64,000 nucleotides of DNA from an uncultured bacterium (GTDB taxonomy: Bacteria; Patescibacteriota; Minisyncoccia; Phycocordibacterales; UBA6065): the NCBI GenBank assembly GCA_966243015.1, contig CBIMES010000002.1, positions 48,518-112,517 on the forward strand, read 5' to 3'. Under the pieces are notes generated by a model that did no database searches, had not been told where the DNA came from, and saw only the letters and a list, made by a program, of their open reading frames with translations. Numbering within the stretch: position 1 is the first letter of the stretch; every line of letters begins with the position of its first letter. Shown here one piece after another: positions 11,559 to 58,015 of the stretch. The position numbers and the translations under genes were made by a program.

Positions 11559-12071
11559 TTGATTAAAGACAGAATTCGCGTCAATCACCAGATTAAGGCA
11601 CCTCAGGTCCGCGTCATCGGCGCCGAGGGCGAGAACGTTGGCGTAATTTCTATCAGCGAGGCCCTCTCCATGGCCCACGCAGCGGGTCTCGACCTCATCG
11701 AGATCTCGCCTAACGCCCAGCCACCCGTAGCCAAGATCATGGACTACGGCAAGTTCCAGTACGAGGAGAGCAAGAAGCAGAAGGCCGCAAAGGCAAAGTC
11801 CCACACCGTCGAGATCAAGAGCCTCCAGGTTAAGATCGGCACCGGAGACCACGACCTCGCCCTCAAGGCAAAAAAAGCCTCAGAGTGGCTCAAGGAGGGT
11901 CAGAGAATCAAAATCGACCTCTTCCTCCCTGGTAGGTCAAAGTATATGGACCCCAAGTTCCTCGAGGAGCGCCTTCAGCGCATCTTGACCCTCATCAGCG
12001 AGGAGTACAAGATCGCCGAGAAGCCCCAGAAGAGCCCGAAAGGCCTCACCACCATCATCGAGCGAGCCTAG
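11559..12071 (+). CDS. infC: Translation initiation factor IF-3
   Basis: IF-3 N- and C-terminal domains (INHQIKAPQVRVIGAEGENVGVI...; VKIGTGDHDLALKAKKASEWLKEGQRIKIDLFLPGR). Non-ATG start (TTG at 11559, or ATT at 11562), as is typical for infC. Confidence 0.9.
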   Translation: MIKDRIRVNHQIKAPQVRVIGAEGENVGVISISEALSMAHAAGLDLIEISPNAQPPVAKIMDYGKFQYEESKKQKAAKAKSHTVEIKSLQVKIGTGDHDLALKAKKASEWLKEGQRIKIDLFLPGRSKYMDPKFLEERLQRILTLISEEYKIAEKPQKSPKGLTTIIERA

Positions 12072-12090
12072 GCCTCCAAGGTTCGCAAAA

Positions 12091-12127
12091 ATACAACACT
12101 CTTGCATAATGTGCAAGAGTGTTGTAT
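12091..12127 (+). terminator. Perfect 16-bp hairpin after infC (atacaacactcttgca-taatg-tgcaagagtgttgtat)
   Basis: Seen directly in the sequence. There is no long T-tract, so it may be a terminator or an RNA processing/regulatory hairpin. Confidence 0.45.
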
Positions 12128-12193
12128 TAATAAGGCAAAAGATCTTCGCCATTCCGGCCAAGACCTCTCAACCCACAAAAACGAAAGGTTTGG

Positions 12194-12820
12194 ATGAAAC
12201 GCGTAATCGCTCTTATCGTGGCGTTCGTCGCCACTGCCCTGCCCCTCATATCGGCGCAGGCATACCGCTATGACTTTTCGGGGACTATCGAGGAATCGAG
12301 CTACCCGACAAGCCTCCCGACGGGCACCTTATTCTCCGGGCACATCACCGTTGACTGGGACCTCCTCACGGAAATAACCTTCTTCAATGATGCGGCTTCG
12401 TCGATACAGGCAACCATAACCGGGGGAGATCTTACGGTCGGCGGCTACGATTACGACTTTATCGTCGCCTCCGCGGGGTTTAGCTTCCAGATATACTTCG
12501 GACCGGCTGACCCTGATCTCCGGTTTGACGGGTTCAGGGATACCGGAGACTCGGGGCTCACCCTCCCCGGTGCAACCGAGCCGTTCTCCTACGTATCGGG
12601 AGGAGAGATTCCCCAAAGCCTCGTCCTTGGCGAATTTCTCGCCGGCGGAACCCTGGTGATCGCGGCAGTAGACCAGGACACCTGGGAAAGCGCCTCGGCG
12701 ACAGGTTCGATAGCCCTCACGTCGGCAACCGCCATACCCGAGCCCTCAGCGGCGGGCGCCTTGGCAGGGATCCTGGCCGCCATGATTGCCGTAGGCGTCA
12801 GGGACAGAAGAAGGGCCTAA
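12194..12820 (+). CDS. Secreted protein with a C-terminal PEP-CTERM sorting signal (paralogue of 1641..2246)
   Basis: Signal peptide MKRVIALIVAFVATALPLISAQA. C-terminus IPEPSAAGALAGILAAMIAVGVRDRRRA. The N-terminal region aligns with the 1641..2246 protein (FSG..ES..P....G...SG.I.VD.DL). Confidence 0.75.
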   Translation: MKRVIALIVAFVATALPLISAQAYRYDFSGTIEESSYPTSLPTGTLFSGHITVDWDLLTEITFFNDAASSIQATITGGDLTVGGYDYDFIVASAGFSFQIYFGPADPDLRFDGFRDTGDSGLTLPGATEPFSYVSGGEIPQSLVLGEFLAGGTLVIAAVDQDTWESASATGSIALTSATAIPEPSAAGALAGILAAMIAVGVRDRRRA

Positions 12821-12977
12821 AACCCCCTCACACAGGGCCGCTGGAACAAAAACCGGCGGCCTTTTACTTTCATCCGGAAAAAAGCTGATGAATACTGGAC
12901 AAAAAGCCATAATCTGGTAGACTGTCCCCTAACAGCCTTCGGGCTTTTAATTTTTCCCAGAACACGGGAAGCAAGCT

Positions 12978-13166
12978 ATGAAAACCAACAAATCATTCGC
13001 AAAGAGGCTCAAGGTAACCAGGAACGGCAAGATTCTTGGCCGAAAGACTGGTCAGAACCACTTCAACGCTAAAGAGAGCGGCCGAAAGCAGCTCAAGAAG
13101 AGCGGCACCGTCCCTTTCCACATGACCCCAAAGGAGAAGGCTCGCTTCCTCTCGAACCTTATCTAG
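12978..13166 (+). CDS. rpmI: 50S ribosomal protein L35
   Basis: 62 aa, basic, with an L35-like sequence (KTNKSFAKRLKVTRNGKILGRK...). Positioned in the infC-rpmI-rplT arrangement. Confidence 0.8.
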   Translation: MKTNKSFAKRLKVTRNGKILGRKTGQNHFNAKESGRKQLKKSGTVPFHMTPKEKARFLSNLI

Positions 13167-13197
13167 TCCCCTTTTATAATCCCCTTACACCAACACC

Positions 13198-13545
13198 ATG
13201 GCACGAGTAAAGAAAGCAGTTAACGCCCTCAAGACCCGACGAAACGTCCTTCGAGCGGCAAAGGGCTACCGATTCCAGCGATCGAAGACCGAGCGAGCGG
13301 CAAACGACGCCCTCTCACACGCAGGCGCATACGCCTTCGCTCACCGACGAGACAAGAAGGGCGATCGACGAAGCTTCAACATCATCAAGATCAACGCCGC
13401 CCTCGACGCACAGGGCCTCTCGTACAGCAAGTTCATGGGCATGGTCAAGAAGCAGAACATCATCGTTGACCGAAAGATCCTCGCGATTCTCGCAGAGCAC
13501 AACCCAGAGACCTTCGACCGCATCGTAAAGAAGGTAACGGCGTAA
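13198..13545 (+). CDS. rplT: 50S ribosomal protein L20
   Basis: MARVKKAVNALKTRRNVLRAAKGYRFQRSK...INAALDAQGLSYSKFM...VDRKILAILA, a canonical L20. Confidence 0.9.
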   Translation: MARVKKAVNALKTRRNVLRAAKGYRFQRSKTERAANDALSHAGAYAFAHRRDKKGDRRSFNIIKINAALDAQGLSYSKFMGMVKKQNIIVDRKILAILAEHNPETFDRIVKKVTA

Positions 13546-13552
13546 GCCACAG

Positions 13553-13580
13553 AAAAACCGCCCCATGGGGCGGTTTTTCT
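13553..13580. terminator. Bidirectional terminator (aaaaccgcccca / tggggcggtttt followed by a T-tract)
   Basis: Palindromic GC stem with an A-tract on the 5' side and a T-tract on the 3' side, between convergent genes. Confidence 0.7.
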
Positions 13581-13593
13581 TTTGCCTTTTGAC

Positions 13594-13818
13594 CTATATT
13601 CCCATCTCCCTGAGAATACGGGCTCGGTCCTCAGGGGTCGTGGTCGGACGGGCCGCCTCGAGCTCGCCCACCACGCGCTGCCTCTCAGGTGACTGAGGAA
13701 GCTTGTCCGGGGCAAACGACTCGGACGCCACCTCCACCCTCTTGGTCATGGACCAGGAATAGGCCCAGATACCTGCCGCCACAAGACCGAGAACTATAAG
13801 TATAATTACTTTCCTCAT
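13594..13818 (-). CDS. Small membrane protein (74 aa)
   Basis: N-terminal TM helix. Immediately downstream of, and co-oriented with, 13831..14772. Confidence 0.4.
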   Translation of the reverse strand: MRKVIILIVLGLVAAGIWAYSWSMTKRVEVASESFAPDKLPQSPERQRVVGELEAARPTTTPEDRARILREMGI

Positions 13819-13830
13819 GAAAGAGTCGTA

Positions 13831-14772
13831 TTACGGCTTGTAGCAGAACAGGAACGAGTGGTCGACGAGAGAACTTCCGTTTCCGCTGTAATAGACTCTT
13901 TTCTGAAGAACCCCGTTAACCGCATCACAACCCGAATCACCGTTATTTCCGGTCACAGGATTGCTATAAGGGTTGTAACCTCCGCCCCACATGCCATAAA
14001 ACTGCTGTTGCACTGGTATAGAGAGATTCGTCGTATAGCAATACCAGAGTGGGTAATCCACGTCGGTCTTTCCCGCAACCTGCTTTGCGGTATACCCCGT
14101 CGGGCAGGCCTTGGTGTTGCCCGCGAGCGGGTTGGTGTACGTTGACGAGTTGTATGTGTTTCCACTAGTCCAACCGTATCCGTACATACCACCAAATTCA
14201 GCGACCTTTGAGACGTTGGCCGAAGATCCTACACAAACCCAGACGCTGTAGTCGTAATCAGTCCTTCCGAGAACCTTATAGGGGGCATATCCCGTCGGGC
14301 AGGCCTTGGTGTTGCCCGCGAGCGGGTTGGTGTAGTTTGAAGATCCGCCACCGTACATGCCTCCGAAGTAGTACTCGATTTCGGTCGTAGGGTCCTCGCA
14401 GACAGCCTGACCATTCGCGTCAATTCCTCGAAGGAACTCGCCTGGAGGGCACGTTATGGAAGTGGAAACTGGCCACGCATCGAGGCAGACCTCGTTAAGG
14501 CATATGTCGCCCGCAATAGCGAGAGTCGACGGCATCGACGAGGAACCCACTTTCACAGGACCATCAAAGAACGCATCGAGCATTGATCGGAAGCCGTTAG
14601 TCACAAGGCCGCCCGACTTGGTCTGTGTGATCGAGCTCACGTTGATGGGCGCCGGTGCGTCACCCGCCGGAGGAGTTGACGAGGGTGCCGTCCATGCCTG
14701 AATCGAGATTGCGCTTCCCAGAAGAAGCGAGAGGCAGAACATTGCGTAGAATATCGAGCTCTTTGTTTTCAT
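13831..14772 (-). CDS. Secreted Cys-rich protein with internal repeats (YTNPLAGNTKACPTGY repeated twice)
   Basis: Signal peptide MKTKSSIFYAMFCLSLLLGSAISIQA, paired cysteines, and a 44-bp perfect direct repeat inside the CDS. Confidence 0.6.
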   Translation of the reverse strand: MKTKSSIFYAMFCLSLLLGSAISIQAWTAPSSTPPAGDAPAPINVSSITQTKSGGLVTNGFRSMLDAFFDGPVKVGSSSMPSTLAIAGDICLNEVCLDAWPVSTSITCPPGEFLRGIDANGQAVCEDPTTEIEYYFGGMYGGGSSNYTNPLAGNTKACPTGYAPYKVLGRTDYDYSVWVCVGSSANVSKVAEFGGMYGYGWTSGNTYNSSTYTNPLAGNTKACPTGYTAKQVAGKTDVDYPLWYCYTTNLSIPVQQQFYGMWGGGYNPYSNPVTGNNGDSGCDAVNGVLQKRVYYSGNGSSLVDHSFLFCYKP

Positions 14773-14821
14773 CTTTATTTCCTTAAATTTGCTTGTATCA
14801 ATAATAACACCGATCGGGATT

Positions 14822-16057
14822 CTATATCTCCTCGAATCGAGCGCTGACTGGCGACTGCTTTATCCTGTACACCTTCGTCCTCGACGGCACCCCGTCCCCT
14901 GTCGCGTTCAAGGTTACGTAATACCACGTGCAGTTGATAGGGACATTCTCCGCCGAGCATGCGTTCACGATCTTCCTGTTAACCCTGAGCTTGAAAGTGG
15001 TTACCCCGTTGTACGGAAGGGTTATCGAACCCGGCGTCTCGGTGAACCCAGAGGTTCCGAGGGCGTACTCTATCGTCGTGCTCGCCGGAAGTGCCGAGGA
15101 AAGACCTCCGAACGAGATATCAACATCGCCCGTGTATCCGCCGTAGGAAACCACGGTGATTTTCTTGGTCTCGGAATCAGAGCCCGCGTCGCCAATCGTC
15201 TGAAGCTTGATGTCCTCGGGACCTCCGATGCTGAAGCCTGGCTGCTGGATGAGGACCGTGAATGAGGCGGTCTGCGTATTTGAATAGCCCGAGCCGTTCT
15301 GGCAGCTGAACTGATACGTGTAGGAACCGTTCGTGAGAGGACCCGTCATCGCGGACGAGCTGGTCGCGATGCCCGTGACCGTGGTAAAGGCGGTTCCGCC
15401 CGAAGAGGTCTTTGAAAGCGTACATGACGTGCCCACAGGCAGGTCAGACACCGTCCAGGCAAGGGAGACGTTTGATCCGTACTCGATGTCGGTCCTATCC
15501 TTTATGCTGAGTCCGCCCAGAAGCGCGTCAAACGAGACACCGGGGAATCCCGTGGCTATCTGCACGCCGCCGACGCCGGCAAAGTTCACCCAGCCCACGA
15601 CGTCACTGCCCCACGCAAAACCGACGAGACTTGGACCAGACTGGCTTATGCCGTATCCTGTACCAGCCATGCTGATCCAGCCGTCCCAGCCATAGCCGTT
15701 CGCGGACGTCGCCTTTGCCCAACCAACGATGTCAGAGCCGACCAACTTGGCATTGACGGCCTGGGTTCCGTCACCCGTCGGGAAGCCGGAGAGGCCGCCG
15801 AACTGAATCCAGCCGATATTCGGGGACCAGGCGTATCCAGAGAGATCGCCCGTGCTCGGGTTTATATTAACGCCGTAATTAACCGGCGACGCCTGCACGC
15901 CCGCAGCAGACTCGTCATGGTCGTTCGTCGAGTTGAAACTGATCCAGCCGATATTAGAAGACCACGCAAAACCCGAGAGGTTATGCTCACTGCCCGCACT
16001 CGCAAGAAAAGGGGAGAAAAGAAGGGCGAGGGCGAAGAACAAAATACTTTTTCTCAT
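14822..16057 (-). CDS. Secreted repeat protein (GFAWSSNIGWISF-type repeats repeated four times)
   Basis: Signal peptide MRKSILFFALALLFSPFLASA. Tandem aromatic repeats ([FY]AWS.NIGWI.F), followed by a Ser/Thr/Gly-rich region. Confidence 0.6.
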   Translation of the reverse strand: MRKSILFFALALLFSPFLASAGSEHNLSGFAWSSNIGWISFNSTNDHDESAAGVQASPVNYGVNINPSTGDLSGYAWSPNIGWIQFGGLSGFPTGDGTQAVNAKLVGSDIVGWAKATSANGYGWDGWISMAGTGYGISQSGPSLVGFAWGSDVVGWVNFAGVGGVQIATGFPGVSFDALLGGLSIKDRTDIEYGSNVSLAWTVSDLPVGTSCTLSKTSSGGTAFTTVTGIATSSSAMTGPLTNGSYTYQFSCQNGSGYSNTQTASFTVLIQQPGFSIGGPEDIKLQTIGDAGSDSETKKITVVSYGGYTGDVDISFGGLSSALPASTTIEYALGTSGFTETPGSITLPYNGVTTFKLRVNRKIVNACSAENVPINCTWYYVTLNATGDGVPSRTKVYRIKQSPVSARFEEI

Positions 16058-35861: not shown

Positions 35862-37175
35862 CTATCTGAGAGCGTTAACCAGCCTTACCAGATCCTCAAT
35901 GGCGAACGCAACCGAGGCGAGGCTGGAATGTGATTCGACGCTTGATGTCACCGGCAGGGTCTTCCAGACGGTGTTTGGGGAAGACGATGCAAGAACCGTC
36001 GCCTGGGCCCTGCCGTCAGAATCCATGTAGTTTATCTTCTCAAGCTCAACCTGATAGATACCGCTCGCGCCCGGAGACAGGAAAAACGTGTGATACACAG
36101 GAACCTTCACCTGATTGTTTTCCTGCACCTTAAAGGCGACGCCGCTTGGCAAACCTGACGTCACGACACCGACTGACGGCACCGAGAAATACGAGAGCGC
36201 GCCATCAACGGGGGTTTTTACGCCATTCCTATAGACCGAGAACACGAACGAGCCCGGCTGCGAGAACGAATAATCATCTTCCCTGGCAAGAATCGATACG
36301 TTAAAGGTTGCCCTTACCGTCGTGGTAGCGCCGAACTGTGTAGACATACCGACGTGTTTTTCAATCGACGGGGTGCCGACAAGAGAGAACTCCGGTCCCG
36401 CGCCAACGCTGTTCGGCACGGGAGCCACGGCAGACCTCGCAGCAGGCGCCTTGTCCGCAGATACAATACCCATGTATATATAGAGCTCGACAAGGTTAAA
36501 CAAACTCATGTTTGCGGGCGCGCCCAGGGCTATCTCCCGCGCCTGCTGAGCCTTGGCGGGGGTAATGATGCCTACGCCTATAAAAGTCTCCGCAAGATCA
36601 GTGGCTGCCTTGTTCTGGGCTTGCGGAGGGGTAGATGTTGCGACTGGGGCGCTTTCGACAATCGAGAAAGACCCGCTCTGCTTATATCCCGTGGCAGTGC
36701 TCAGATACACGATGTAGTCACTCGCCACAGGAGTCGACGTCGCGATCTTCCAAGAAAACGATCCCGCGCTTGAGACCTTGCCGCTCGCCACTGGATTGCC
36801 CACAGTCTTGGACAGGACATTTTTGGTTGGGCCCGTTGATTTTCGATACACCGCGAGGCCAAGGCTGTTATTCGAAGTCGTGAGACCAGAAACCTCCCAC
36901 GAGATAGTCACCGTGTCGCCAACTTTGTAAGCCTCTCCTCCTGCGGGAGCCAGCGAATTAATGACCGGCTTTGCGCTCAAGGACGGCGCAGGAGCAGGCT
37001 TGGCCACCGTACTGTTAAGCACGGGCTTCGCCACCACGGTCGCCTTAGCGGGTGTAGACACCTTGGTTGGCAGCACATTGCCCCGGATCATTGTCTGAGC
37101 AGAGGTTGCCGAGACCGAGAGACCACACACGAGAAGCACCGCCGAGACCGACGCGACCGCAATAACGTTCTTCAT
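35862..37175 (-). CDS. Secreted hypothetical protein (437 aa), paralogue A of the inserted family
   Basis: Signal peptide MKNVIAVASVSAVLLVCGLSVSATSA, Ser/Thr/Ala-rich. Its C-terminal domain SVPSVGVVTSGLPSGVAFKVQENNQVKVPV...PG is shared with the 32031..33020 protein. Confidence 0.6.
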   Translation of the reverse strand: MKNVIAVASVSAVLLVCGLSVSATSAQTMIRGNVLPTKVSTPAKATVVAKPVLNSTVAKPAPAPSLSAKPVINSLAPAGGEAYKVGDTVTISWEVSGLTTSNNSLGLAVYRKSTGPTKNVLSKTVGNPVASGKVSSAGSFSWKIATSTPVASDYIVYLSTATGYKQSGSFSIVESAPVATSTPPQAQNKAATDLAETFIGVGIITPAKAQQAREIALGAPANMSLFNLVELYIYMGIVSADKAPAARSAVAPVPNSVGAGPEFSLVGTPSIEKHVGMSTQFGATTTVRATFNVSILAREDDYSFSQPGSFVFSVYRNGVKTPVDGALSYFSVPSVGVVTSGLPSGVAFKVQENNQVKVPVYHTFFLSPGASGIYQVELEKINYMDSDGRAQATVLASSSPNTVWKTLPVTSSVESHSSLASVAFAIEDLVRLVNALR

Positions 37176-39623: not shown

Positions 39624-40229
39624 CTATTTGTAGAGCTTGGCACACTGTCGACATGATCCTATCTCGCACGCAGCCCCGTCACCTGTTGTGTTGATAGGGT
39701 CAGCCCAGTAGAATTTACCCCAATAACCTCCCAGTACTGCGCACTGCGCGAACGTCGGTTGGCCTGCGGCTTCTTCAGGGATATATCCGATCTGGAAGCT
39801 GTCTGTGCCGTACGAACTCACATCAACCACGTTCCCATTCTTATCTGTGACGAGACCTGCGATGAGCGCCACGGGCGATGCGTAAATGTAAGCGTTTGCC
39901 TCGCGCGTAGGCACAGGATCAATTGGAACCTTAGCCATATAAGGCGCGAGCGCGGTGTTCAAAGCATCATTACCTTTGTGATTGACGGCACACGTCTGAC
40001 TCGACGTCATACCGAGACAGGCCCCTTTTGTAACAGGATACGATCCCCCATGATCCAAGGCATAGAGATAAAGGGCCTTCGATATCTGGTCCATATCGGC
40101 AACGCGTTTTGCGTTCCTCGCCTTAAGTCGCGCCGCGTTCAGGCTCGAGAGCACGACGCTCGACAGCAAAGCGATGATCGAAATGACAACAAGAAGTTCA
40201 ATGAGTGTGAAGCCCTCTCTGCGATTCAT
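39624..40229 (-). CDS. Type IV pilin-like (prepilin N-terminal methylation domain) protein
   Basis: Start placed at MNRREGFTLIELLVVISIIALLSSVVL. The upstream ATG lies inside the rpsG terminator hairpin. Cys-containing C-terminal domain. Confidence 0.7.
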   Translation of the reverse strand: MNRREGFTLIELLVVISIIALLSSVVLSSLNAARLKARNAKRVADMDQISKALYLYALDHGGSYPVTKGACLGMTSSQTCAVNHKGNDALNTALAPYMAKVPIDPVPTREANAYIYASPVALIAGLVTDKNGNVVDVSSYGTDSFQIGYIPEEAAGQPTFAQCAVLGGYWGKFYWADPINTTGDGAACEIGSCRQCAKLYK

Positions 40230-40255
40230 ATGAATCGATGATACCACCGTTGAAA

Positions 40256-40287
40256 CAGCAAAAGCCACCATGTGGTGGCTTTTGCTG
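40256..40287 (-). terminator. Perfect 15-bp palindromic hairpin after rpsG (cagcaaaagccacca / tggtggcttttgctg)
   Basis: Seen directly in the sequence. The T-run is short (ttt), so it may be only a partial terminator. Confidence 0.5.
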
Positions 40288-41462: not shown

Positions 41463-42386
41463 ATGGCATCCAACGAAGAAAACCTCCCTCTCAAGCTCAT
41501 CCAGCGAAACGCGGACGAGCTTAACCTCAAGAACCCCCTCATGGTCGAGGGTGAGGCAGCCTTGTTCGCGGAATACCCTTCCCCTGTAGAGAGCGCCGTT
41601 GTCTTCCTACCCAAGAGCAAAGCCCTCATTAATATGACCCTCGCCCTGGTTTCGGGAATCGTCAAAGAGGACGGCATCATCGTCCTTGCAGGGACGAACA
41701 ATGCGGGCATTCGCTCGGCGAACAACGCCTACGAGACGCAGGTGGGCCCTGTCGAGAAGAAATTCGTGGGCAATCACTCGGCCCTCTATGTGGGCAAGAA
41801 CAAGAAGCTCGGCGCAGGCAAGAAAATCGCTGATTTCCTCTCATTCTCGAAGCTCTCGTATAAAGACACCGATCTAGACGTCGCCAGCCTCCCCGGCGTA
41901 TTCAGCGCAGACGGACTCGACGAGGGAACCAGACTCCTCCTCGACACCATCCCTTACGAGAAAAGGGCGAAGCGCGTGCTTGATATTGCCTGCGGCGCGG
42001 GAATTATCGGCGCAATATACAAAAAGAAATCACCTGAAAGCGACCTCACGCTCTCTGACGTGAGCCCCCTTGCTGTTGCCGCCGCCAAAGAGACCCTTAC
42101 AAAAAACACGATCGATGGATCTGTCGTACTCTCGGACGGGTTCTCGCGCATAAGCGGCACGTTCGACCTCATGGTGGCAAATCCCCCATTCCACACGGGA
42201 GTAAAAACCGATTATTCGTTTATTGAGAACTTCGCGGCAAATGCGCGCAGGCACTTGAATAAGAGCGGGGAAATATACCTCGTCGCAAACGCATTCCTCC
42301 CCTACAAGGAAAAGCTCGAACGCATCGGGCCAACCGAAATGGTCGCGGAGACCCCGAAATTTATCGTGTGGCGAACGGTCGCGTAG
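41463..42386 (+). CDS. Class I SAM-dependent methyltransferase, RsmC/RlmG-like (rRNA m2G type)
   Basis: VLDIACGAGIIG (SAM-binding motif) and ANPPFH (N2-guanine/N6-adenine catalytic motif). Start placed at MASNEEN (ATG 41463). Confidence 0.65.
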   Translation: MASNEENLPLKLIQRNADELNLKNPLMVEGEAALFAEYPSPVESAVVFLPKSKALINMTLALVSGIVKEDGIIVLAGTNNAGIRSANNAYETQVGPVEKKFVGNHSALYVGKNKKLGAGKKIADFLSFSKLSYKDTDLDVASLPGVFSADGLDEGTRLLLDTIPYEKRAKRVLDIACGAGIIGAIYKKKSPESDLTLSDVSPLAVAAAKETLTKNTIDGSVVLSDGFSRISGTFDLMVANPPFHTGVKTDYSFIENFAANARRHLNKSGEIYLVANAFLPYKEKLERIGPTEMVAETPKFIVWRTVA

Positions 42387-43182
42387 AAATCGCCTGAGCA
42401 TAGACACTCTCTATCTCAGCGGCGACAAGAGACTTGGCGAAAACGTAGACCGAATCGATGAGAAGGTTTCGCCCACACCCATTGGTACACGCGGCCAGGG
42501 CACCAAGCGTGGCGTTAAATGACGCGGGCACACCTGAGTTGGTTGAAGACAGGGTTGTGCCATCAAGCTTTCCGTCGACATACACCTTAAGAGTGGAGCC
42601 ATCATAGGTCCCCGCCAGGTGATACCAGCGTCCAGACTGTATTGCAGTAGAACCAGTCACCGACACTGCCGATCCATTCCAGATCCTAAAGGACGCCCTT
42701 CCCCCGCCAGTCACCTGGAGACTGTAGCCATTGTAGGCGCCGCAACAGTCTCGGTCGTTCGAGAAAATGTAGTTATATCCCGACGTCGTGTACTTGACCC
42801 AACCCATGACGGTAATGCTCCCGGCCATTGAGGAAAGAGAGACGTTCGACCCTGCGTTTACGTAAGGGGTGGTCCCAGACGAGGAGACGGAACAGCCCTT
42901 ACCAGTAGGCGTATCGGTCGAAAACGCCGCGCCGCCAGTCAAGGTGCCCGTATTGCCGTTGCCAGAGAGGTCGTTGGCGACAGTGCCGCTGCACTCGTCG
43001 AACTCCCATATACCCATAGCCTCGTCACCCGCGGCGTGATACACATTTGCGGCAAACTGCCGAGAGGCAGCAAGAGCGGCCTTCGATCGAGAAGCATTCA
43101 CGCTCGATATAACAACGCTCGAAAGAAGCGCGACAATGGCAATGACGACAAGAAGCTCGATGAGGGTGAATCCCCTTTTCAT
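42361..43182 (-). CDS. Type IV pilin-like protein fused to a LamG/concanavalin-A-like domain (second copy)
   Basis: Start placed at MKRGFTLIELLVVIAIVALLSSV. LamG-like region GRWYHLAGTYDGSTLKVYVDGKLDG. The ORF-track 73-aa N-terminal extension is rejected. Confidence 0.75.
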   Translation of the reverse strand: MKRGFTLIELLVVIAIVALLSSVVISSVNASRSKAALAASRQFAANVYHAAGDEAMGIWEFDECSGTVANDLSGNGNTGTLTGGAAFSTDTPTGKGCSVSSSGTTPYVNAGSNVSLSSMAGSITVMGWVKYTTSGYNYIFSNDRDCCGAYNGYSLQVTGGGRASFRIWNGSAVSVTGSTAIQSGRWYHLAGTYDGSTLKVYVDGKLDGTTLSSTNSGVPASFNATLGALAACTNGCGRNLLIDSVYVFAKSLVAAEIESVYAQAISTRPFATR

Positions 43183-43201
43183 ACAGTACAGTGTACCCAA
43201 C

Positions 43202-43819
43202 TTAAAGCCCTGTGAACACCCTGAAGAGGAGGGGCACGAGCGGCGAGAAGAACTGCCAGAAGAAGACGAGGAAGATGATGACGCCGAGGAAACCAAGCCT
43301 TTCAACCCTCTCGCGGAACGCCACGAAGCGCTGAGGCAGAAGAGTCGTGAGCACCTTCGATCCGTCGAGAGGAGGAATGGGGACGAGATTAAAAACGGCA
43401 AGCGTCAGGTTGATGATGACGATAATCTGAGACAACACCCCGAGAGGGCTCTCGAGAAGACCCTGTGGCCACACATAAAGGCGAATAAACGTGCCGAAGA
43501 TGAGGGCAATGATGATATTGGACAGAGGCCCCGCGGCGGCAACAAGCCCCTCTCCCCATCGCCTGTTACGGAGATTGTAGGGATTATACGGAACAGGCTT
43601 CGCCCAACCGAAGACAATACCCCCTGGCAAAAGAAGGGTTATGACGGGAAACACGATTGTTCCCATTATGTCTATGTGCCTGAGCGGATTCAGGGTGAGC
43701 CTGCCTTCGTAGGCGGCAGTCTTGTCGCCGAGAGCCAGGGCTGCGTATCCATGGGCTATCTCATGGATAATGACCGAAAACAGGAGGATGACGAGGGAGA
43801 AAATGAGTTGTAGATCCAT
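43202..43819 (-). CDS. Site-2 protease family (peptidase M50) membrane metalloprotease
   Basis: HEIAHG (HExxH) and the FNLVPIPPLDG motif; multiple TM helices. Confidence 0.8.
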   Translation of the reverse strand: MDLQLIFSLVILLFSVIIHEIAHGYAALALGDKTAAYEGRLTLNPLRHIDIMGTIVFPVITLLLPGGIVFGWAKPVPYNPYNLRNRRWGEGLVAAAGPLSNIIIALIFGTFIRLYVWPQGLLESPLGVLSQIIVIINLTLAVFNLVPIPPLDGSKVLTTLLPQRFVAFRERVERLGFLGVIIFLVFFWQFFSPLVPLLFRVFTGL

Positions 43820-50582: not shown

Positions 50583-50681
50583 ACAAGTGACTCGGCTCAC
50601 ATTCACACAGTCGACATCAATAAATATTAAACGGCTCACCGTAGTGAGCCGTTTAATATGGCCTTGTTAAGGCTTTATATC

Positions 50682-51413
50682 CTAGGAGCAAGCGCAGTAG
50701 TCATTGCCCGATCCAGAGCACACAGACACGGCGGCGGGATTCGGGATGCAGCTGATGAAACCCGGCTCGACAAAACAAGGACCGCTCGGACCCGTAAACT
50801 TCCAAGGGCACACGCTTCCGTACATGCCGTTTCCTCCGCCGCACTCTGGCCTTCCGTACGTTGTGCAGAAACTAACCGTACCCATCGGATAGGAGAAATA
50901 GACAGCATTCGGATCAGTGTAAGGAGTTGAGGTGGTATATGAAGATATGCAGGTGGTATACGGCTGTTGAACAGGCATAATCGCACAGCTGTTCTTCGAG
51001 GCCTGGGCCTGACCCGTGACGAGAGAGGCTCCGAACGCGGACTGATCGGCGGACGAGTCGGCGTAGTACACGTAGGAATCATCCTTGCTGTCAGGGATAG
51101 CGGAGATGTATCCCCCGCTCACGAGCTCCTGCATGCTCGCATTGAAAGCCTGGGTACCCTCAAGTGCGATTGAGTCTCCCGTGCCACCCGCACAATAATT
51201 GCCGCCACAGTTGTAATTGCGTGGCACCTTTCCCGTGGCGCTCTTCTTGATACTGATCGCCGTCTCGACCTGGTGAACCTGTGACTTCTTGTTTGCGTCG
51301 CTGGCCTTGGCACGCGCCGAGGCGGTCGAGTACATGGTAACGCTCGAAACAAGGGACACGATCGATACTACGACCAAGAGCTCAATAAGAGTGAAGCCGC
51401 GCCTGAGAAACAT
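50682..51413 (-). CDS. Type IV pilin-like protein, Cys-rich C-terminal domain
   Basis: N-terminus MFLRRGFTLIELLVVVSIVSLVSSV, with many paired cysteines. Co-oriented with, and immediately downstream of, pgk. Confidence 0.7.
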   Translation of the reverse strand: MFLRRGFTLIELLVVVSIVSLVSSVTMYSTASARAKASDANKKSQVHQVETAISIKKSATGKVPRNYNCGGNYCAGGTGDSIALEGTQAFNASMQELVSGGYISAIPDSKDDSYVYYADSSADQSAFGASLVTGQAQASKNSCAIMPVQQPYTTCISSYTTSTPYTDPNAVYFSYPMGTVSFCTTYGRPECGGGNGMYGSVCPWKFTGPSGPCFVEPGFISCIPNPAAVSVCSGSGNDYCACS

Positions 51414-51423
51414 GTATGTGAAA

Positions 51424-52551
51424 TTATCGCTTTAATACCTCAATGCCAGGGAGCGTGCCGTCCGCAAGAAACTGAAGCATGGCGCCGCCGCCCGTCGAGA
51501 CGAAGGAGAACTTGTCGAGAAGGTCTGCCTTCGAGACAACGGCGATGGTGTCTCCACCACCGATAATGGTCTTTACGCCACTTTCGACAAGGGCCTTGGC
51601 GAGACCCTCGGTTCCCTCGGAGAAACCGTGCTCGTAATCGCCGAGAGGGCCGTTCCAGAGAACGAACTGCGCGTCAGTGAGGATGTCAGAGAGTTCGCCA
51701 ATGGTCTTTGGGCCAGCGTCCATGATCTTGTCATCAGGACTAATACCCTCGGCACCCTTCACCTCGCGTGCGGACACGCTTGCCGCAACGACGTCAGTCG
51801 GAACAATGAGGCGAGGATTCGCCTCGATATGCTTGAGGTTCACGTGAACCTTGGAAACCATGGACTGACCGATCTCGTAGCCCTTCTCCTTGAAAATGTC
51901 GTTCGAGAGCGCCCCTCCGACGAACACATAGTCGGCGATGCCAAGGAACTTCTCGATGAGAGGAAGCTTGGTATCGAACTTCGCGCCGCCGAGCACAAAG
52001 AGAAACGGATGCGGAGGGTTGAACGCCTGCGAAAGCTGCTCAATCTCCTGCGCCATGAGGAATCCGGCAAAGGCCGGGAGGAGCTTTGGCACAGACACGA
52101 CCGAAGCGTGGGCTCGATGCGACACGGCAAAGGCATCGTTCACGTAGATATCGGCAAGGCTCGCGAGCTTCGAGGCGAACACGGGATTATTCTCTTTCTC
52201 GCCCGGATTGAGACGCAGATTCTCGAGCATGACAATCTCCCCTTCTGCCAGAGAGGAAACCACGCTTGGAGCGTCATCGAGATTCGAGATGAACGCCTTA
52301 ACAGGGACGAACTGCTGCAAATACGTGGCGACACGAGCAAGGGTCTTCACCGACTCGCTTTCGAGGTGGCTCATAATGATGACTCTCGCACCAGCCTCCC
52401 TGAGGAAGCGAAGCGTCTGAAGAGATCGCTGAATGCGGAAATCGTCGCGAACCTCACCCTCGACGATCGGAACATTGAAATCGAGGCGAAGCAGCACGCG
52501 CTTGCCGCGAAGGTCCTTCTCGTCAGCGATTTTCTTAATTTCCGTTGGCAT
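51424..52551 (-). CDS. pgk: Phosphoglycerate kinase
   Basis: 375 aa with a canonical PGK sequence (RLDFNVP...; GGGA...). Confidence 0.95.
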   Translation of the reverse strand: MPTEIKKIADEKDLRGKRVLLRLDFNVPIVEGEVRDDFRIQRSLQTLRFLREAGARVIIMSHLESESVKTLARVATYLQQFVPVKAFISNLDDAPSVVSSLAEGEIVMLENLRLNPGEKENNPVFASKLASLADIYVNDAFAVSHRAHASVVSVPKLLPAFAGFLMAQEIEQLSQAFNPPHPFLFVLGGAKFDTKLPLIEKFLGIADYVFVGGALSNDIFKEKGYEIGQSMVSKVHVNLKHIEANPRLIVPTDVVAASVSAREVKGAEGISPDDKIMDAGPKTIGELSDILTDAQFVLWNGPLGDYEHGFSEGTEGLAKALVESGVKTIIGGGDTIAVVSKADLLDKFSFVSTGGGAMLQFLADGTLPGIEVLKR

Positions 52552-53308
52552 AGGTGATGATGTTACCGAACCCCTCGATGTCGAGGCTCTGTCGGCCGAT
52601 AAGAAGGCCGCTCACCTCCCCATCCGAGAGAATCTTCTGGGCATTCTCGAAATTGACCGAACCGCCGTAGAGCACAGGAGTCCTCAGACCCTCCTGCTTG
52701 CCCGCCGCCTCGGCGACGATTTTCTTTATATAGATGCACATCTCGTGAATATCGACCGGCGAGAGAGCCGTGTCATAGCTTTTGCCGATCGCCCAGACGG
52801 GCTCGTAGGCAATGGTTATCGATCGGAGGTGCTTCTTGTCGATGAGGGCGATGGCGGCCAGCACCTGCTCTCGCACCGTACGGAGGTAATGCGCGTGATT
52901 GTCGCGCTCCTTCTCGCCGACGCAGAGAATGACGCCGAGGCCGGCGGCGACGGCCATCTTCACCTTCTCGGCAATAACAGCGTCCGTGTCCCCTGCCGCC
53001 CGTCGCTCGCTGTGGCCGATGATCGCCCACTCAGCGCCGGCGCTCGCTACCTGAGAGGCGCTGACTGCGCCCGTGAACGAGCCTCGATCGCGATGATCTA
53101 CGTCCTGGGCGCCGAACGAAATGGCCTTTTCCCTGCCACGAGAGACGCCCTCGATGAACGGGGCCGGAGGACAGACGATAACCGAGACTTTCGGCGACTT
53201 CTGGGCGACACGCTCGACCGCCGAAGCAAGCTTTTTAGCATCTTCCAGGGTATCAGGATTCATCTTCCAGTTTCCGACAATGGTGAACTTCTTCTTGGCT
53301 GATTTCAT
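52535..53308 (-). CDS. tpiA: Triosephosphate isomerase
   Basis: IVGNWKMN...; AYEPVWAIG; YGGSV. Confidence 0.95.
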   Translation of the reverse strand: MKSAKKKFTIVGNWKMNPDTLEDAKKLASAVERVAQKSPKVSVIVCPPAPFIEGVSRGREKAISFGAQDVDHRDRGSFTGAVSASQVASAGAEWAIIGHSERRAAGDTDAVIAEKVKMAVAAGLGVILCVGEKERDNHAHYLRTVREQVLAAIALIDKKHLRSITIAYEPVWAIGKSYDTALSPVDIHEMCIYIKKIVAEAAGKQEGLRTPVLYGGSVNFENAQKILSDGEVSGLLIGRQSLDIEGFGNIITYANGN

Positions 53309-53329: not shown

Positions 53330-54481
53330 TCAGTGGTGATGATGGTGGGAATGCGAGTGAGAGTGACCCTGGTGGGAAGAGGTCGATCCGGGCCTCACTA
53401 TAAGCAAAATCGAGATAATCGTGGTCACGGGAACCGCCAGAATGAGGCCAATAGAGCCCACAAGAGTTCGCATGATCTCGGTGGCCATTATCTCCCTGTT
53501 CAATATGGAAAGGATGTCGGCGCTTGATTGATAGAACAAGAGAAGAAGAGGCAGGGCTGCGCCCACATAGGCAATAGCAAGGGCGGTGACAAGGGCACCA
53601 ATGTGCTCACGGCCAATGCGCGTGGCCTTTTTGAAGATCTCCCGCCTGGTGAGATGGGGACCCGCGGCATGAAGCTCGTCGACGGCGACCGACTGACCGA
53701 TGGCACTGTCGTAGAGCACTCCCAGAAGGCCGATGATTATGGCGCCAAGAAGAAGGCCCGAGAGGTTAATCGCCCCGCCCGCATTGAGGTTGAGGTACAT
53801 GGCGTGCTCGTCTCCATAGCCCGTGAGCATTCCCCAGCGAACCGAGACATACGCCAGGACTCCCGTAATGATGACGGTAAAGATCATGCCGAGGACGGCA
53901 GAGGTGGTTGACCTGTTGATGCCGTGGGTAATGTACGAACCAACGAGAATGATAAGCGATGCCACCGCGATCGAGACGAAAATCGGCGAATATCCCGCAA
54001 GCACCGCCGGCAGGAGAACATAGATAATAAGGAGGACGCTTCCCGCAAGCGAGACGAGGCCGCGAATACCCTGCCATCCGCCAAAGGCAATAATCACGAG
54101 CAGGAACAGGGCCGTGAAGAAGATAAGTGACGGAGACCTGTCGGGTTCGCCAAACATATACAACTCCTGACCCTCTACCGTCTGAAGTCGATGGACGAAT
54201 ATCTTGTCACCCGCGTCGACGCGAACATAATCATTCTCGATCTCGACGCTCTTCCCCTTTGCCGCACCCTCGAGGATTTCGATGAGGAGTCTCTGATACG
54301 GAGCGGTGACCTTGGTGCCCGGAACGACACGATCCTCGTCCTCGCGCACGGACTCGACGCGAGCCCTCACGGTTTCCTGAACGTCCTGGTGAAGCTCCTG
54401 CGCTGACACGAAAGACGCGCCCCACATAACAAAGAGCGCGAGGATCGCCGCCGACGCCTTGATTATCGAGAGGTTACGCAT
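53330..54481 (-). CDS. YibE/F-family membrane protein with a His-rich C-terminal tail
   Basis: Signal/TM segment, periplasmic N-terminal domain, about seven TM helices, and a C-terminus HQGHSHSHSHHHHH. Overlaps the upstream Fur-family gene by 19 nt. Confidence 0.65.
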   Translation of the reverse strand: MRNLSIIKASAAILALFVMWGASFVSAQELHQDVQETVRARVESVREDEDRVVPGTKVTAPYQRLLIEILEGAAKGKSVEIENDYVRVDAGDKIFVHRLQTVEGQELYMFGEPDRSPSLIFFTALFLLVIIAFGGWQGIRGLVSLAGSVLLIIYVLLPAVLAGYSPIFVSIAVASLIILVGSYITHGINRSTTSAVLGMIFTVIITGVLAYVSVRWGMLTGYGDEHAMYLNLNAGGAINLSGLLLGAIIIGLLGVLYDSAIGQSVAVDELHAAGPHLTRREIFKKATRIGREHIGALVTALAIAYVGAALPLLLLFYQSSADILSILNREIMATEIMRTLVGSIGLILAVPVTTIISILLIVRPGSTSSHQGHSHSHSHHHHH

Positions 54482-54888
54482 GATGAGCAGGTTCCGAACA
54501 ACTCGAATGAGTGCTTCGAGATAGTCTTGAATTTCTTGGAGTTCTTGAGAATCTCATCGCCCAGGCGAGTGAACGCGCAGAGCTCAAATCCTTCGACGAG
54601 GCCGCAGCGGAGGCACACAATGTGATGATGGTGATCGTCGGCAAGCTCGTACGAAAGAGCGTCGGCGCCGAGGGAGAGAGACCTTACAATGTCGGCATCC
54701 TCAAATGACTTAAGCGTTCGGTACACCGTCACCGTATCAATGGACGAGTCCTTCTTGGAAAGCGCCTTGAGAAGGTCTTTGACGGTAAGAGGCTTGGGTG
54801 CCGAGCGCAAAGTCGATAGAACCAGCAGGCGCACAGGGGTGGCCTTGAGCTTTGCGTCATTGAGGAGCTTCTTGTCGTGAGTGTTCAT
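54463..54888 (-). CDS. Fur-family metalloregulator (Fur/Zur/PerR-like)
   Basis: Winged-helix N-terminus, HHHHIVCLRCG...C..C metal-binding motifs; 141 aa. Confidence 0.8.
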   Translation of the reverse strand: MNTHDKKLLNDAKLKATPVRLLVLSTLRSAPKPLTVKDLLKALSKKDSSIDTVTVYRTLKSFEDADIVRSLSLGADALSYELADDHHHHIVCLRCGLVEGFELCAFTRLGDEILKNSKKFKTISKHSFELFGTCSSCVTSR

Positions 54889-54907
54889 GCGTCCATGCTA
54901 TCCCAGA

Positions 54908-54922
54908 TGCAACATGTTTGCA
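54908..54922. promoter_or_regulatory. Palindromic operator candidate TGCAA-catgt-TTGCA 20-35 nt upstream of the Fur-family gene start
   Basis: Same half-sites as 10663-10677 upstream of the ZIP transporter gene. Confidence 0.5.
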
Positions 54923-54979
54923 ATGTAAAACGGACTCGCGCAAGGGCAAATCCGTTCCAGGCACATATTGATTAATTGT

Positions 54980-56707
54980 TTATGGCCGCGAAGCGACTGT
55001 CATGACCTCTTCGATGCTCGTCAGACCTTGGGCTGCGGCGAGAACACCGTCCTCTATAAGAGTGAGCATCCCCTCCTTCTTGGCGCGCTCCTCGAGAGCG
55101 TCAGCCTTGGCACCCTTCATGACGAGCTCCTTGAGCGCGGGCGACATTCTGAGGACCTCGAAGAGGCCGATGCGTCCGGCGTACCCGTCAGTGCCCGCAG
55201 CAGCCTTCGGCGTGCCGAAGAGAACCTTGTCCCAACCATCGCGAGAGCCGATGATCTTCTCCGAGCGAAGAAGTGAGAGCAGCCTGTCGAGATCGGCGAC
55301 CCGACCCAGCGCGGCAAGCTCCGCTTTGGTAAGGGGCCTGCGATTGCGAGCGTCAGCGAGCCTGCGCACGAGCCTCTGGCTCACCACCGTCGACAGCGTC
55401 GACGAAAGCATGAATGGGTCAAGCCCCGTCTCAAGCATCTGAACGACAGCGGCGGAAGCGGAGTGAGACCTCACCATAGAGAGGATGAGTCGGCCGGACA
55501 GGGCGGCATGAGCGGCGAGCGACGTAGTGTCGGCATCGCGCACCTCCCCCACCATGATCACGTCAGCGTCCTGCCTGACGGCAGAGCGAAGACCCGCGGC
55601 GAACGTGAGGCCGATATCTGGCCTAACCTGGGTCTGAGAGACGCGAGGCATCTGGTACTCAATAGGGTCCTCGACCGTCGAGACGCTCGTATCAGGAGAA
55701 TTGACAATATCAATCATCGTATACAAAGTGGTCGAAGTGCCAGAAGACGCCGGGCCAGAGACGAGAATCATGCCCGACCCCTTTTTGAGAGCACCATGCA
55801 CACGCTCGAGCGCCTCGCCACGAAGGCCCAGATGCTCGAGGGTGAATCCCGAGGCGCTCTCACGCATGAGGCGGATGACCGTCTTCTCGCCATGCGCGGT
55901 AGGAGCGATCGATACGCGCAGCGAAACCTTCTCGTGATTCATCTCAACCTTGAAGCGACCGTCCTGGGGCACATCCCTCTCCCCGACCCTCAGCTTGGCG
56001 AGCGACTTGATGCGCGCGGCAAGACCGATCTCGGTCTCTTTAGGCAAGACCATGGCATCGTGAAGCGAGCCGTTGATACGGTAGCGAACCAACAGATCCC
56101 TCTCGAGAGGCTCTATGTGTATATCGGAAGCGTTCTGAACAATCGCGTGCTTGAGAAGGGTGTCGAGAACACGGACCACCGACAAATCGTCGGCAAGCCT
56201 GAGAGAGCTAACGCCCGCCTGATTCCTGAGAATGCCCGTCTCCTTCCTTATAATGTCTCCAAACTCTGACTTGAGGCCTCTCTGATAGCGAAGAAGCGCC
56301 GATTTCATTGACTCAGCGTCCGTAAAGCGAGGCAAAACCTTGAGACCCACCTTCTTTGCCAAGAAATCAATGGACGAGAGAGCCCGAAGATCGAGCAGGG
56401 CAACCTCCAGAGCGACCTCTCCCTTCTTGTAGGCGATGACGTTGTGGTTTCGAGCAATAGGCTCAGGAATAAGAGAAAGCGTCTCAAAATCAATCTTCTT
56501 CGAAGAAAGGTCGACGAAGGGAATGCCGAGAATGTATGACTGAACGCGGCGGAAGTCATCTTCCGAAAGGTGACCCTCGCTTACGAGGACCTCACCGAGG
56601 CTCTTGCCCGTATCCTGGGCATCCCTCTGGTACTCGGAAATGTCCCTGCGGGACACGAGACCCGAGCTGATGATGAAGTCCCTGAGCTGTGCGTCGCCAA
56701 TGAGCAT
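54980..56707 (-). CDS. GspE/PilB-family secretion ATPase homologue with degenerate catalytic motifs (predicted non-catalytic paralogue)
   Basis: T2SE N-terminal domain and ATPase core are present. Walker A reads GPASSGTST (no Lys), the His box reads LSMVRSHS, and the tetracysteine motif is absent. Asp box VEDPIEY and Walker B DVIMVGEVRD are conserved. Confidence 0.7.
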   Translation of the reverse strand: MLIGDAQLRDFIISSGLVSRRDISEYQRDAQDTGKSLGEVLVSEGHLSEDDFRRVQSYILGIPFVDLSSKKIDFETLSLIPEPIARNHNVIAYKKGEVALEVALLDLRALSSIDFLAKKVGLKVLPRFTDAESMKSALLRYQRGLKSEFGDIIRKETGILRNQAGVSSLRLADDLSVVRVLDTLLKHAIVQNASDIHIEPLERDLLVRYRINGSLHDAMVLPKETEIGLAARIKSLAKLRVGERDVPQDGRFKVEMNHEKVSLRVSIAPTAHGEKTVIRLMRESASGFTLEHLGLRGEALERVHGALKKGSGMILVSGPASSGTSTTLYTMIDIVNSPDTSVSTVEDPIEYQMPRVSQTQVRPDIGLTFAAGLRSAVRQDADVIMVGEVRDADTTSLAAHAALSGRLILSMVRSHSASAAVVQMLETGLDPFMLSSTLSTVVSQRLVRRLADARNRRPLTKAELAALGRVADLDRLLSLLRSEKIIGSRDGWDKVLFGTPKAAAGTDGYAGRIGLFEVLRMSPALKELVMKGAKADALEERAKKEGMLTLIEDGVLAAAQGLTSIEEVMTVASRP

Positions 56708-56854: not shown

Positions 56855-58015
56855 ATGTTTGACCTTAAAGTAATACATTCGGTGCTCGGACAGCTCGAAG
56901 AGGAGCGCGGCATTCCGAAGCAGAAAATCATCGAGGCCATCGAGGCGGCACTCGCTACAGCCTACAAGAAGGAGTACGGCAAGCGCGGACAGATTGTCCG
57001 GGCGACCTTCGACCTCAATACCGGAGCAACCGAGTTCCTCCAGGTGAAAATCGCCGTCGACGACACCCTTGTCATCGACATTCCTGAGGGGGAGGAGATT
57101 CCTGAGATGTCGGCCGACGACGATCGCATGCGATTCAACCCAGAGCATCACATCTGGATTGAGGATGCGCGAAAGATCAAGAAGGACGTCCAGCTCGAGG
57201 AGGAGATGCTCTTCCCTCTCGAGCCAAAGGACGATTTCGGCCGCATCGCCGCACAGACCGCAAAGCAGGTTATCATCCAGAAGATCCGCGAAGCCGAGAA
57301 AACCTCTGTTCTCGGTGAGTACGGCAAGCGCGAGGGCGAGATTGTGTCAGGCACCGTCCAGCGTATCGAGCGAGGCACCATCTTCGTCGACATGGGACGA
57401 GCGGTGGGAATCCTGCCATTCGAGGAGCAGATCAGGAGCGAGCACTTCAAGCAGGGCGAGCGCATCCGCGCATACCTCTTCCGCGTCGAGGAATCCCCTC
57501 GAGGCGTCCTCCTCAAGCTCTCGAGGTCGCACCCTAAGTTCCTCGAGAAGCTCTTCGCTATCGAGGCTCCCGAGATTGCCAACGGCACCGTCGAGGTAAA
57601 GGCAATCGCCCGAGAGGCAGGCTCCCGCTCGAAGATTGCCGTGACCTCAAACGACGCGCATATCGACCCTATTGGCTCGCTCGTCGGACAGCGGGGAGTC
57701 CGAGTCAACACCGTCACCTCCGAGCTCGGAGGTGAGAAGGTGGACATCATCGAATGGTCATCAGACGCCAAGAAGTTCATCACCGACGCCCTCTCCCCTG
57801 CGGAGGTTTCCAATATCACCCTCGACGAGGAAACCAAGACCGCGGTAGTCGAGGTCAGCGAGGACCAGCAGTCTCTTGCCATCGGCAAGGGCGGACAGAA
57901 CGTCCGACTTGCCGCGAAGCTTGTCGGCTGGAAGATTGACATCAAGGCCGGCACCGCGCCCGCAAGCAAGAATTCCAACGAGTCCGCCGAGGAGTCGGAG
58001 GATGAGACCGCCTAA
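56855..58015 (+). CDS. nusA: Transcription termination/antitermination factor NusA
   Basis: N-terminal domain, S1 domain and two KH domains; acidic C-terminus. Confidence 0.9.
   Translation: MFDLKVIHSVLGQLEEERGIPKQKIIEAIEAALATAYKKEYGKRGQIVRATFDLNTGATEFLQVKIAVDDTLVIDIPEGEEIPEMSADDDRMRFNPEHHIWIEDARKIKKDVQLEEEMLFPLEPKDDFGRIAAQTAKQVIIQKIREAEKTSVLGEYGKREGEIVSGTVQRIERGTIFVDMGRAVGILPFEEQIRSEHFKQGERIRAYLFRVEESPRGVLLKLSRSHPKFLEKLFAIEAPEIANGTVEVKAIAREAGSRSKIAVTSNDAHIDPIGSLVGQRGVRVNTVTSELGGEKVDIIEWSSDAKKFITDALSPAEVSNITLDEETKTAVVEVSEDQQSLAIGKGGQNVRLAAKLVGWKIDIKAGTAPASKNSNESAEESEDETA

Follow-up and report, generated by a model that had tools for sequence, protein, structure and literature searches.

A 64,000-nucleotide stretch of DNA from an uncultured bacterium of the Patescibacteria (contig CBIMES010000002.1 of assembly GCA_966243015.1; hereafter, the window) contains a pilB-like gene, at 54980..56707 on the minus strand, whose product resembles the assembly ATPases of type IV pili (T4P) but departs from them in its active site, and the present analysis concerns the origin and probable role of this gene. 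Its open reading frame (ORF) is full length, with 575 amino acids (aa) and a stop codon, an ATG start and no internal stops. The gene is divergent from nusA (56855..58015, plus strand), the conserved left-hand anchor of the locus. On its other side, and likewise on the minus strand, lie a gene for a Fur-family regulator (54463..54888) and one for a YibE/F-family membrane protein (53330..54481), which together (53330..54888) stand where intact loci have pilC and the minor pilin genes, and then the conserved right-hand anchors tpiA (52535..53308) and pgk (51424..52551), spanning 51424..53308 and encoding TIM and PGK.

Sequence profiles, solved structures and a predicted model all identify the product as a member of the PilB/GspE family by descent, fold and architecture. 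Pfam detects T2SSE (PF00437, 1.4e-94, residues 172-569) and, at the N-terminus, MshEN (PF05157, 7.5e-09), i.e., the N1D domain, which is also matched by the N-domain structure of MshE (5htl) at 9e-10; this GSPII/MshEN (N1D) domain, which separates extension from retraction ATPases, is present in the protein. Among NCBIfam models PilB ranks first (405 bits) and GspE next (392 bits). The score falls short of the TIGR02538 cutoff (675.65 bits), which is uninformative for Patescibacteria because intact orthologues fall below it too (526 bits). Over the full length, the best solved structures are PilF of T. thermophilus, PilB of M. xanthus, PilB of Geobacter and GspE of Vibrio (1e-77 to 1e-94); PilB/PilF/GspE matches at 1e-91 to 1e-94 have 32-34% identity. 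An AlphaFold2 model based on 62 homologues reaches a mean predicted local distance difference test (pLDDT) score of 82.7, mostly above 85 in the C-terminal domain (CTD), and its top Foldseek matches are PilF, GspE and PilB with E values of about 1e-35.

The active site of this protein combines lost and kept elements, which we located by a phmmer alignment to PilB of G. metallireducens, with residue roles taken from its structural description (PMC5424180). The Walker A motif reads GPASSGTST (aa 318-326, 55730..55756, minus strand) in place of the consensus GPTGSGK(S/T)T, with Lys324 replaced by Thr, Gly321 by Ser, and Thr320 (the equivalent of T327) by Ala. The His box reads SGRLILSMVRSHS (aa 404-416, 55460..55498, minus strand) in place of TGHLVLSTLHTNS, with His406 and His413 both replaced by Arg and Thr404 (the equivalent of T411) by Ser; the counterpart of His413 in G. 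metallireducens, H420, touches the gamma-phosphate in the complex of PilB with AMP-PNP (PMC5424180). Kept, on the other hand, are the Asp box VEDPIEY (aa 345-351, 55655..55675, minus strand) with E346 and the Mg-coordinating E350 (E357 in G. metallireducens), the atypical Walker B motif DVIMVGEVRD (aa 382-391, 55535..55564, minus strand) with the catalytic E388 (E395), and the interface residue R448 (R455). Within the N2D domain (aa 182-300, 55808..56164, minus strand), R251 (R257) and the two arginine fingers R264 (R271) and R279 (R286) are kept as well, both fingers being invariant across the family set. Since in the ADP-bound and open states E357 is linked by salt bridges to R271 or R257 of the adjacent packing unit (PMC5424180), the kept residues would be compatible with a conserved hexamer interface. 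Judged by its motifs, the protein lacks residues on which ATP binding and hydrolysis depend in the members of the family that have been characterised.

A preliminary description made from the sequence alone had reported an intact 575-aa frame, a GspE-type N-terminal domain, a lost Walker A lysine, a changed His box, and a kept Asp box and Walker B motif, and each of these features is confirmed here, the three key substitutions (K324T, H406R and H413R) also by the alignment with a characterised PilB. It had further counted the C-terminal tetracysteine zinc motif among the selective losses. The motif is indeed absent, with no CxxC pairs and no cysteines at all in the corresponding region (aa 446-512, 55172..55372, minus strand), but its absence is not part of the degeneration because it is a trait of the whole Paceibacteria PilB subfamily: the motif is found in 0/120 homologues, including catalytically intact copies that adjoin pilC. 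This is an observation in its own right, since classical PilB/GspE proteins are said to depend on the zinc site (PMC11656802) and the entire subfamily (P0002-P0120 of our protein set; loci L008 and L012-L171) does without it yet looks otherwise catalytically intact.

These 120 homologues are the best matches to the protein; all are full length and 55-76% identical to it, and the source names of the closest ones place the window in Patescibacteria, class Paceibacteria. Their consensus motifs are GPTGSGK(S/T)T and TGH(L/V)VLSTLHTN; the Walker A lysine is kept in 118 of them, and 114 are canonical at this lysine and at both His-box histidines. Full degeneration (GPASSGTST with SGR...SMVRS) recurs only in the protein of a sister species, P0001, at 76% identity. 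Partial degeneration is seen in four others: P0057 has arginine for the Walker A lysine, P0008 has kept the lysine and replaced the second histidine by proline, and P0029 and P0050 have both lost the two histidines. Scores against TIGR02538 are graded accordingly, from 526 bits (intact) through 511, 482 and 463 to 405 (the window protein) and 385. A broader set of 165 PilB-family proteins, drawn from loci across many phyla, includes 163 with the Walker A lysine and, for His406 as for His413, 162 with the histidine, almost all exceptions being the degenerate relatives of the window copy. The changes in the window protein go far beyond what chance would give.

Comparison of loci relates the state of the active site to the surroundings of the gene. 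NusA and TIM-PGK bracket the pilB gene in the window, in P0001, P0008, P0057 and the intact P0019 as well as in dozens of other loci, and by this shared gene order the window copy is the positional orthologue of the strongly conserved, NusA-linked pilB of Paceibacteria. The intact locus of P0019 (L008) runs from NusA through five secreted or unknown proteins to PilB and continues with a secreted protein, PilC (T2SSF), a pilin, three further pilin-like or unknown proteins, TIM and PGK, and, further on, HIT and RecJ. In P0057 (L011) the anchors and upstream genes are as in the intact locus, and PilC and the pilins are gone. At the partly to fully degenerate loci of P0008 (L010), P0001 (L005) and the window, the order is reduced to NusA, the pilB-like gene, Fur, YibE_F, TIM and PGK, i.e., the pilus-associated genes are missing both upstream and downstream and the Fur/YibE_F module stands there instead. 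The copy in P0029 (L009) lies at a different genome location, also without PilC.

To quantify this association, reference proteins were matched by tblastn to the fetched loci, and loci of the Paceibacteria family with at least 3.5 kb of downstream sequence were counted. PilC is encoded immediately downstream in 73/74 loci with intact motifs and in 0/6 loci with degenerate motifs (from 5 species; Fisher's exact test, p = 2.7e-7, the events not all being independent). The one intact copy without pilC within 6 kb (L164) is followed by unrelated opposite-strand genes of 391 and 699 aa (11935..15726), which may belong to an inserted island or reflect a chimeric contig. By identity of NusA, TIM and PGK, P0057 is nearer to the intact P0019 than to the window, so that its loss of pilC was probably separate from the one common to the window, P0001 and P0008. 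The locus of P0008, deleted and yet encoding a protein with the Walker A lysine, suggests that the partner genes were lost first and the catalytic residues later.

The substitutions in the active site are not recent, because they are shared with P0001, from which the window gene is separated by saturated synonymous sites. In a comparison of the two genes (NG86), the synonymous rate dS is about 2.2 (saturated) and the nonsynonymous rate dN 0.174, giving a dN/dS ratio of about 0.08; the ratio to P0008 is about 0.17. For the flanking genes tig, ppa, nusA, fur, yibEF, tpiA and pgk, dN to P0001 ranges from 0.03 to 0.13. In a neutral, substitution-only simulation of 575 codons the frame remained open in 1.4% of runs at 0.1 substitutions per site and in 0/5000 at 0.25 or more. 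Thus, the pilB-like gene was kept by purifying selection long after the lysine and the histidines had been lost. The preliminary description had proposed a pseudo-ATPase rather than a decaying pseudogene, and this part of its reading is upheld by the substitutions common to P0001, the low dN/dS ratio, the simulation and the clustering of changes in the ATPase core; the role that it suggested in a pilus or secretion machine remains hypothetical, with pilC and the minor pilins deleted from the locus and no other T4P machinery gene in the window or the next 8-10 kb. It had also pointed out that intact-motif orthologues at the same locus would speak for a recent inactivation or an error; such orthologues do exist, but the change is old and reproducible.

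Selection on the gene has been redistributed as well as relaxed in degree. Relative to the reference L008, identity of PilB exceeds that of NusA/TIM/PGK by 16 +/- 1.7 points over 24 intact loci, and the same difference is +7 for P0057, +2 for P0008, -8 for the window gene and -14 for P0001; hidden Markov model (HMM) scores fall along the same gradient. At columns with 95% conservation or more among intact orthologues, the residue has been replaced in 37% of cases within the CTD core vs. 18% within N1D and N2D, and dN between the window gene and P0001 rises from 0.088 (N1D) through 0.127 (N2D) and 0.234 (CTD core) to 0.272 (C-terminal part), i.e., substitutions cluster in the ATPase core and N1D (aa 1-150, 56258..56707, minus strand) is the most constrained part, whereas conservation in intact pairs is highest in the CTD core and N2D. 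Constraint has therefore moved onto the N-terminal domains and away from the ATPase core. Among the 299 columns that are invariant in the family, the window protein and P0001 both depart from the family residue in 70 (with the same replacement in 49), the window protein alone in 11 and P0001 alone in 19, so that most of the remodelling predates the split of the two species and has been retained since. Codon usage of the gene is ordinary for the region. A foreign origin was considered and rejected, since GC content at third codon positions and synonymous codon usage are like those of neighbouring low-expression genes. No population variants for a polymorphism-based ratio (pN/pS) were found in the 90% cluster, and the assemblies are essentially clonal.

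Taken together, these observations make it probable that the gene encodes a catalytically inactive PilB, a remnant of a dismantled pilus operon that selection still retains. Its ancestor would have been the T4P assembly ATPase of an operon arranged as NusA, surface proteins, PilB, PilC, minor pilins and TIM-PGK, from which pilC and the pilin genes were deleted, with the Fur/YibE_F module taking their place. Afterwards, the CTD-side residues that grip the beta- and gamma-phosphates of ATP (the Walker A lysine and both His-box histidines) would have been replaced, while the three-domain fold, the N1D docking domain, the arginine fingers and the acidic residues of the inter-subunit salt bridges were all retained and selection purged most amino-acid changes since. 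The motor role would then be gone, and what is left may be a non-hydrolysing scaffold or signalling protein that acts through N1D and N2D, possibly still hexameric and ligand-binding, either at a pilus machine whose genes lie at some other place in the genome or in a pathway independent of pili. Because N1D is thought to dock extension ATPases on the PilM/stator ring and binds regulators such as PilZ (PMC11656802), and because the kept Glu/Arg pairs bridge subunits, a role as a hexameric or docking scaffold or in signalling appears to be the most economical mechanism. From its sequence, the protein appears no longer to power pilus assembly and to be kept for a function free of hydrolysis; it should not be annotated as a functional assembly ATPase, because three functional hallmarks of the family (Walker A lysine, His box and partnership with PilC) are absent.

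Several considerations weigh against this interpretation. The dN/dS values are rough because dS is saturated, and constraint is clearly weakened, as the nonsynonymous rate is about three times that of the neighbours on the terminal branches. The fully degenerate clade is known from two species. With R279 (phosphate-binding), E388 (catalytic) and E350 (Mg-binding) in place, some nucleotide chemistry could survive. The latter point leads to the view that the protein is a still-active assembly ATPase with a non-canonical P-loop, in which the His-box arginines stand in for the lysine and PilC is supplied from elsewhere. Such an enzyme would have its catalytic Glu, Mg-coordinating Glu and both arginine fingers strictly kept, as is the case here, and H406R and H413R would put positive charge at the positions that contact the gamma-phosphate. 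We nevertheless consider this very improbable, given a Walker A lysine that is nearly universal in the family and whose mutation abolishes PilB function in characterised systems (PMC11656802), the replacement of more than a third of the invariant CTD-core positions, and the fact that the pilC gene next to pilB has gone from each degenerate locus as well. If instead the gene were a functionless relic of the deleted operon, slowly decaying as an unrecognised pseudogene, the loss of its cognate pilC and minor pilin genes and of its catalytic residues, the accelerated substitution and an HMM score some 120 bits below that of an intact orthologue would all be expected; we regard this as unlikely, in view of the low dN/dS at saturated dS, the full-length ORF in all three species with the deleted locus (the window's, P0001 and P0008), the rarity of open frames in the neutral simulation, the conservation of N1D at housekeeping level and codon usage like that of the neighbours. 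Sequencing or assembly error, or an inactivation specific to a recent strain, has practically no likelihood: the exact 575-aa protein occurs on 12 contigs from separate assemblies, four of which, taken from four samples, match the window over 2-19 kb with 0-2 mismatches, and the same three substitutions are found in a species at 76% identity. Sequencing error as the source of the lost lysine, which the preliminary description had left open, is thereby excluded, because independent assemblies repeat the same sequence.

A more serious contender, though still one that we hold to be clearly less likely than the retained remnant described above, is that the protein acts, in a regulatory or structural capacity, with an intact PilB paralogue and a second T4P system whose genes lie elsewhere in the genome, e.g., by forming mixed hexamers or by competing for docking on PilM/PilC. 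In its favour, the window holds four or more genes for pilin-like proteins whose prepilin motifs are intact (739..1542, 39624..40271, ~42361..43401 and 50682..51413); two complete T4P systems are possible in Patescibacteria (PMC11623550); distant PilB-family genes (32-39% identity) adjoin pilC in the Patescibacteria loci L027, L050, L056, L068, L070 and L080; and conservation within the protein is highest in N1D, where docking is presumed to occur. Against it, a phmmer search of all window ORFs of at least 50 aa matched the protein to itself alone, and Pfam scans and gene tables gave no other T2SSE protein and no T2SSF, PilM, PilT or PilD in the 64-kb window and about 15 kb of flanking sequence. 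Scans of genome and metagenome contigs returned, among the matches listed, best loci about 55% identical, the window's genome not being one of them, nor was any genome seen to carry both PilB types. Some type IV filament machinery is probably encoded elsewhere in the genome, because the window pilins persist and the N-terminal half of the pilin after pgk is conserved in P0001.

Known systems place the dismantled-operon remnant in perspective. It shares with PilB/GspE motors the N1D, N2D and CTD arrangement, the Asp box, the atypical Walker B motif, the catalytic Glu and the arginine fingers, and differs in lacking the Walker A lysine, the His-box histidines, the zinc tetracysteine (as its whole subfamily does) and an adjacent PilC, as well as in its pattern of rates, the ATPase core evolving more quickly than the N-terminal domains, opposite to what is usual. 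The closest precedent for a PilB without the Walker A lysine is the K327A mutant of M. xanthus PilB, in which motility and pilus assembly are abolished and exopolysaccharide (EPS) signalling persists, an effect attributed to the nucleotide-free conformation (PMC5544727; PMC11656802). That protein is a laboratory mutant with a complete T4P machine and an N1D that binds cyclic di-GMP (c-di-GMP), whereas the change in the window protein is natural and ancient, is accompanied by loss of the His box and deletion of the operon, and occurs in a protein without a strict c-di-GMP motif. By analogy, the window protein might tentatively be viewed as a PilB locked in a nucleotide-free (apo) state or otherwise unable to hydrolyse, which after the deletion became a stand-alone signalling or scaffold protein. 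Sensing of c-di-GMP through N1D was considered in this connection and is unsupported, since the strict motif RLGxx(L/V/I)(L/V/I)xxG(L/V/I)(L/V/I)xxxxLxxxLxxQ (a tandem, 24-residue, MshE-type motif) is found neither in the protein nor in any of its 120 homologues; the N-domain scores 26.8 bits against NF053729, under the cutoff of 38.

Parts of type IV filament machines that have an ATPase fold and serve in scaffolding or localisation rather than catalysis are familiar, namely the cytoplasmic domains of PilM/GspL and TadZ/CpaE; their folds (actin-like and ParA/MinD-like, respectively) differ from that of PilB, and they are not derived from the motor ATPase. Saccharibacteria TM7x carries two T4P systems, PilB1/PilC1 and PilB2/PilC2 (PMC11623550). 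It is likewise a Patescibacteria lineage, has more than one T4P assembly ATPase and, as here, pilin genes scattered over several loci, and it differs in that both of its PilBs are treated as extrusion ATPases and each is encoded with its own PilC (PMC11623550).

PilB/GspE motors are treated as obligate ATPases, and evidence for roles outside assembly is scarce apart from the M. xanthus mutant made in the laboratory; no description of a natural, selectively retained PilB or GspE pseudo-ATPase was found in the searchable literature. The main new information from this analysis is the identification of the gene as an orphan of a deleted pilus operon together with graded intermediates in its relatives. 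If the proposed interpretation holds, the Paceibacteria copies, which range from intact ones through K to R without pilC and loss of the His box to loss of all three residues, would document the stepwise birth of a pseudoenzyme and show, in a form open to testing, how a secretion motor becomes one, and the case would indicate which parts of PilB (N1D, N2D and the interface residues) carry a function independent of hydrolysis. For annotation of Patescibacteria, where a PilB label leads to inferred piliation or competence, this locus is one at which such an inference would mislead. Since only a small clade is affected, the general importance of the case is moderate.

Several other genes of the window are related to pili or to the cell surface. 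The pilin-like gene after pgk (50682..51413, minus strand; 243 aa, N-terminus RGFTLIELLVV) is the last of a co-directional string, and after it comes a strong terminator-like hairpin (50659..50624). Another type IV pilin gene (39624..40271, minus strand; 215 aa, GFTLIELLVV) lies inside the str operon between rpsG and fusA, and a 437-aa gene with a weak Kre9_KNH match (35862..37175, minus strand) lies between fusA and tuf. The pilin-like products of 739..1542 and ~42361..43401 (both minus strand) carry a C-terminal Laminin_G_3 (concanavalin-like lectin) domain and are possible adhesive tip or minor pilins. Two genes for secreted proteins (13831..14772 and 14822..16057, both minus strand) are 35-41% identical at the protein level to two of the five genes that intervene between nusA and pilB in L008. 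Because of these homologues at 13831..16057, surface-protein genes of the L008 type can be said to persist elsewhere in the window's genome though they are gone from the pilB locus; as candidates for pilus machinery they were rejected, being secreted surface proteins. Small secreted proteins encoded at 1641..2246 (minus strand) and 12194..12820 (plus strand) end in PEP-CTERM-like sorting signals (...VPEPASFGLFAGLVALALLVAVRRRKGHA and ...IPEPSAAGALAGILAAMIAVGVRDRRRA), which are unexpected for a Patescibacteria genome; no exosortase was seen in the window.

The module that took the place of pilC has features of its own. Between the pilB-like gene and fur, just upstream of the latter, the near-palindrome TGCAAACATGTTGCA (~54905..54935) is a candidate Fur/Zur box, which would imply autoregulation of the Fur/YibE_F module. 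The YibE/F-family protein (minus strand) ends in a His-rich tail, QGHSHSHSHHHHH, and its gene overlaps the fur-family gene by 19 bp, which suggests that the module is metal-related.

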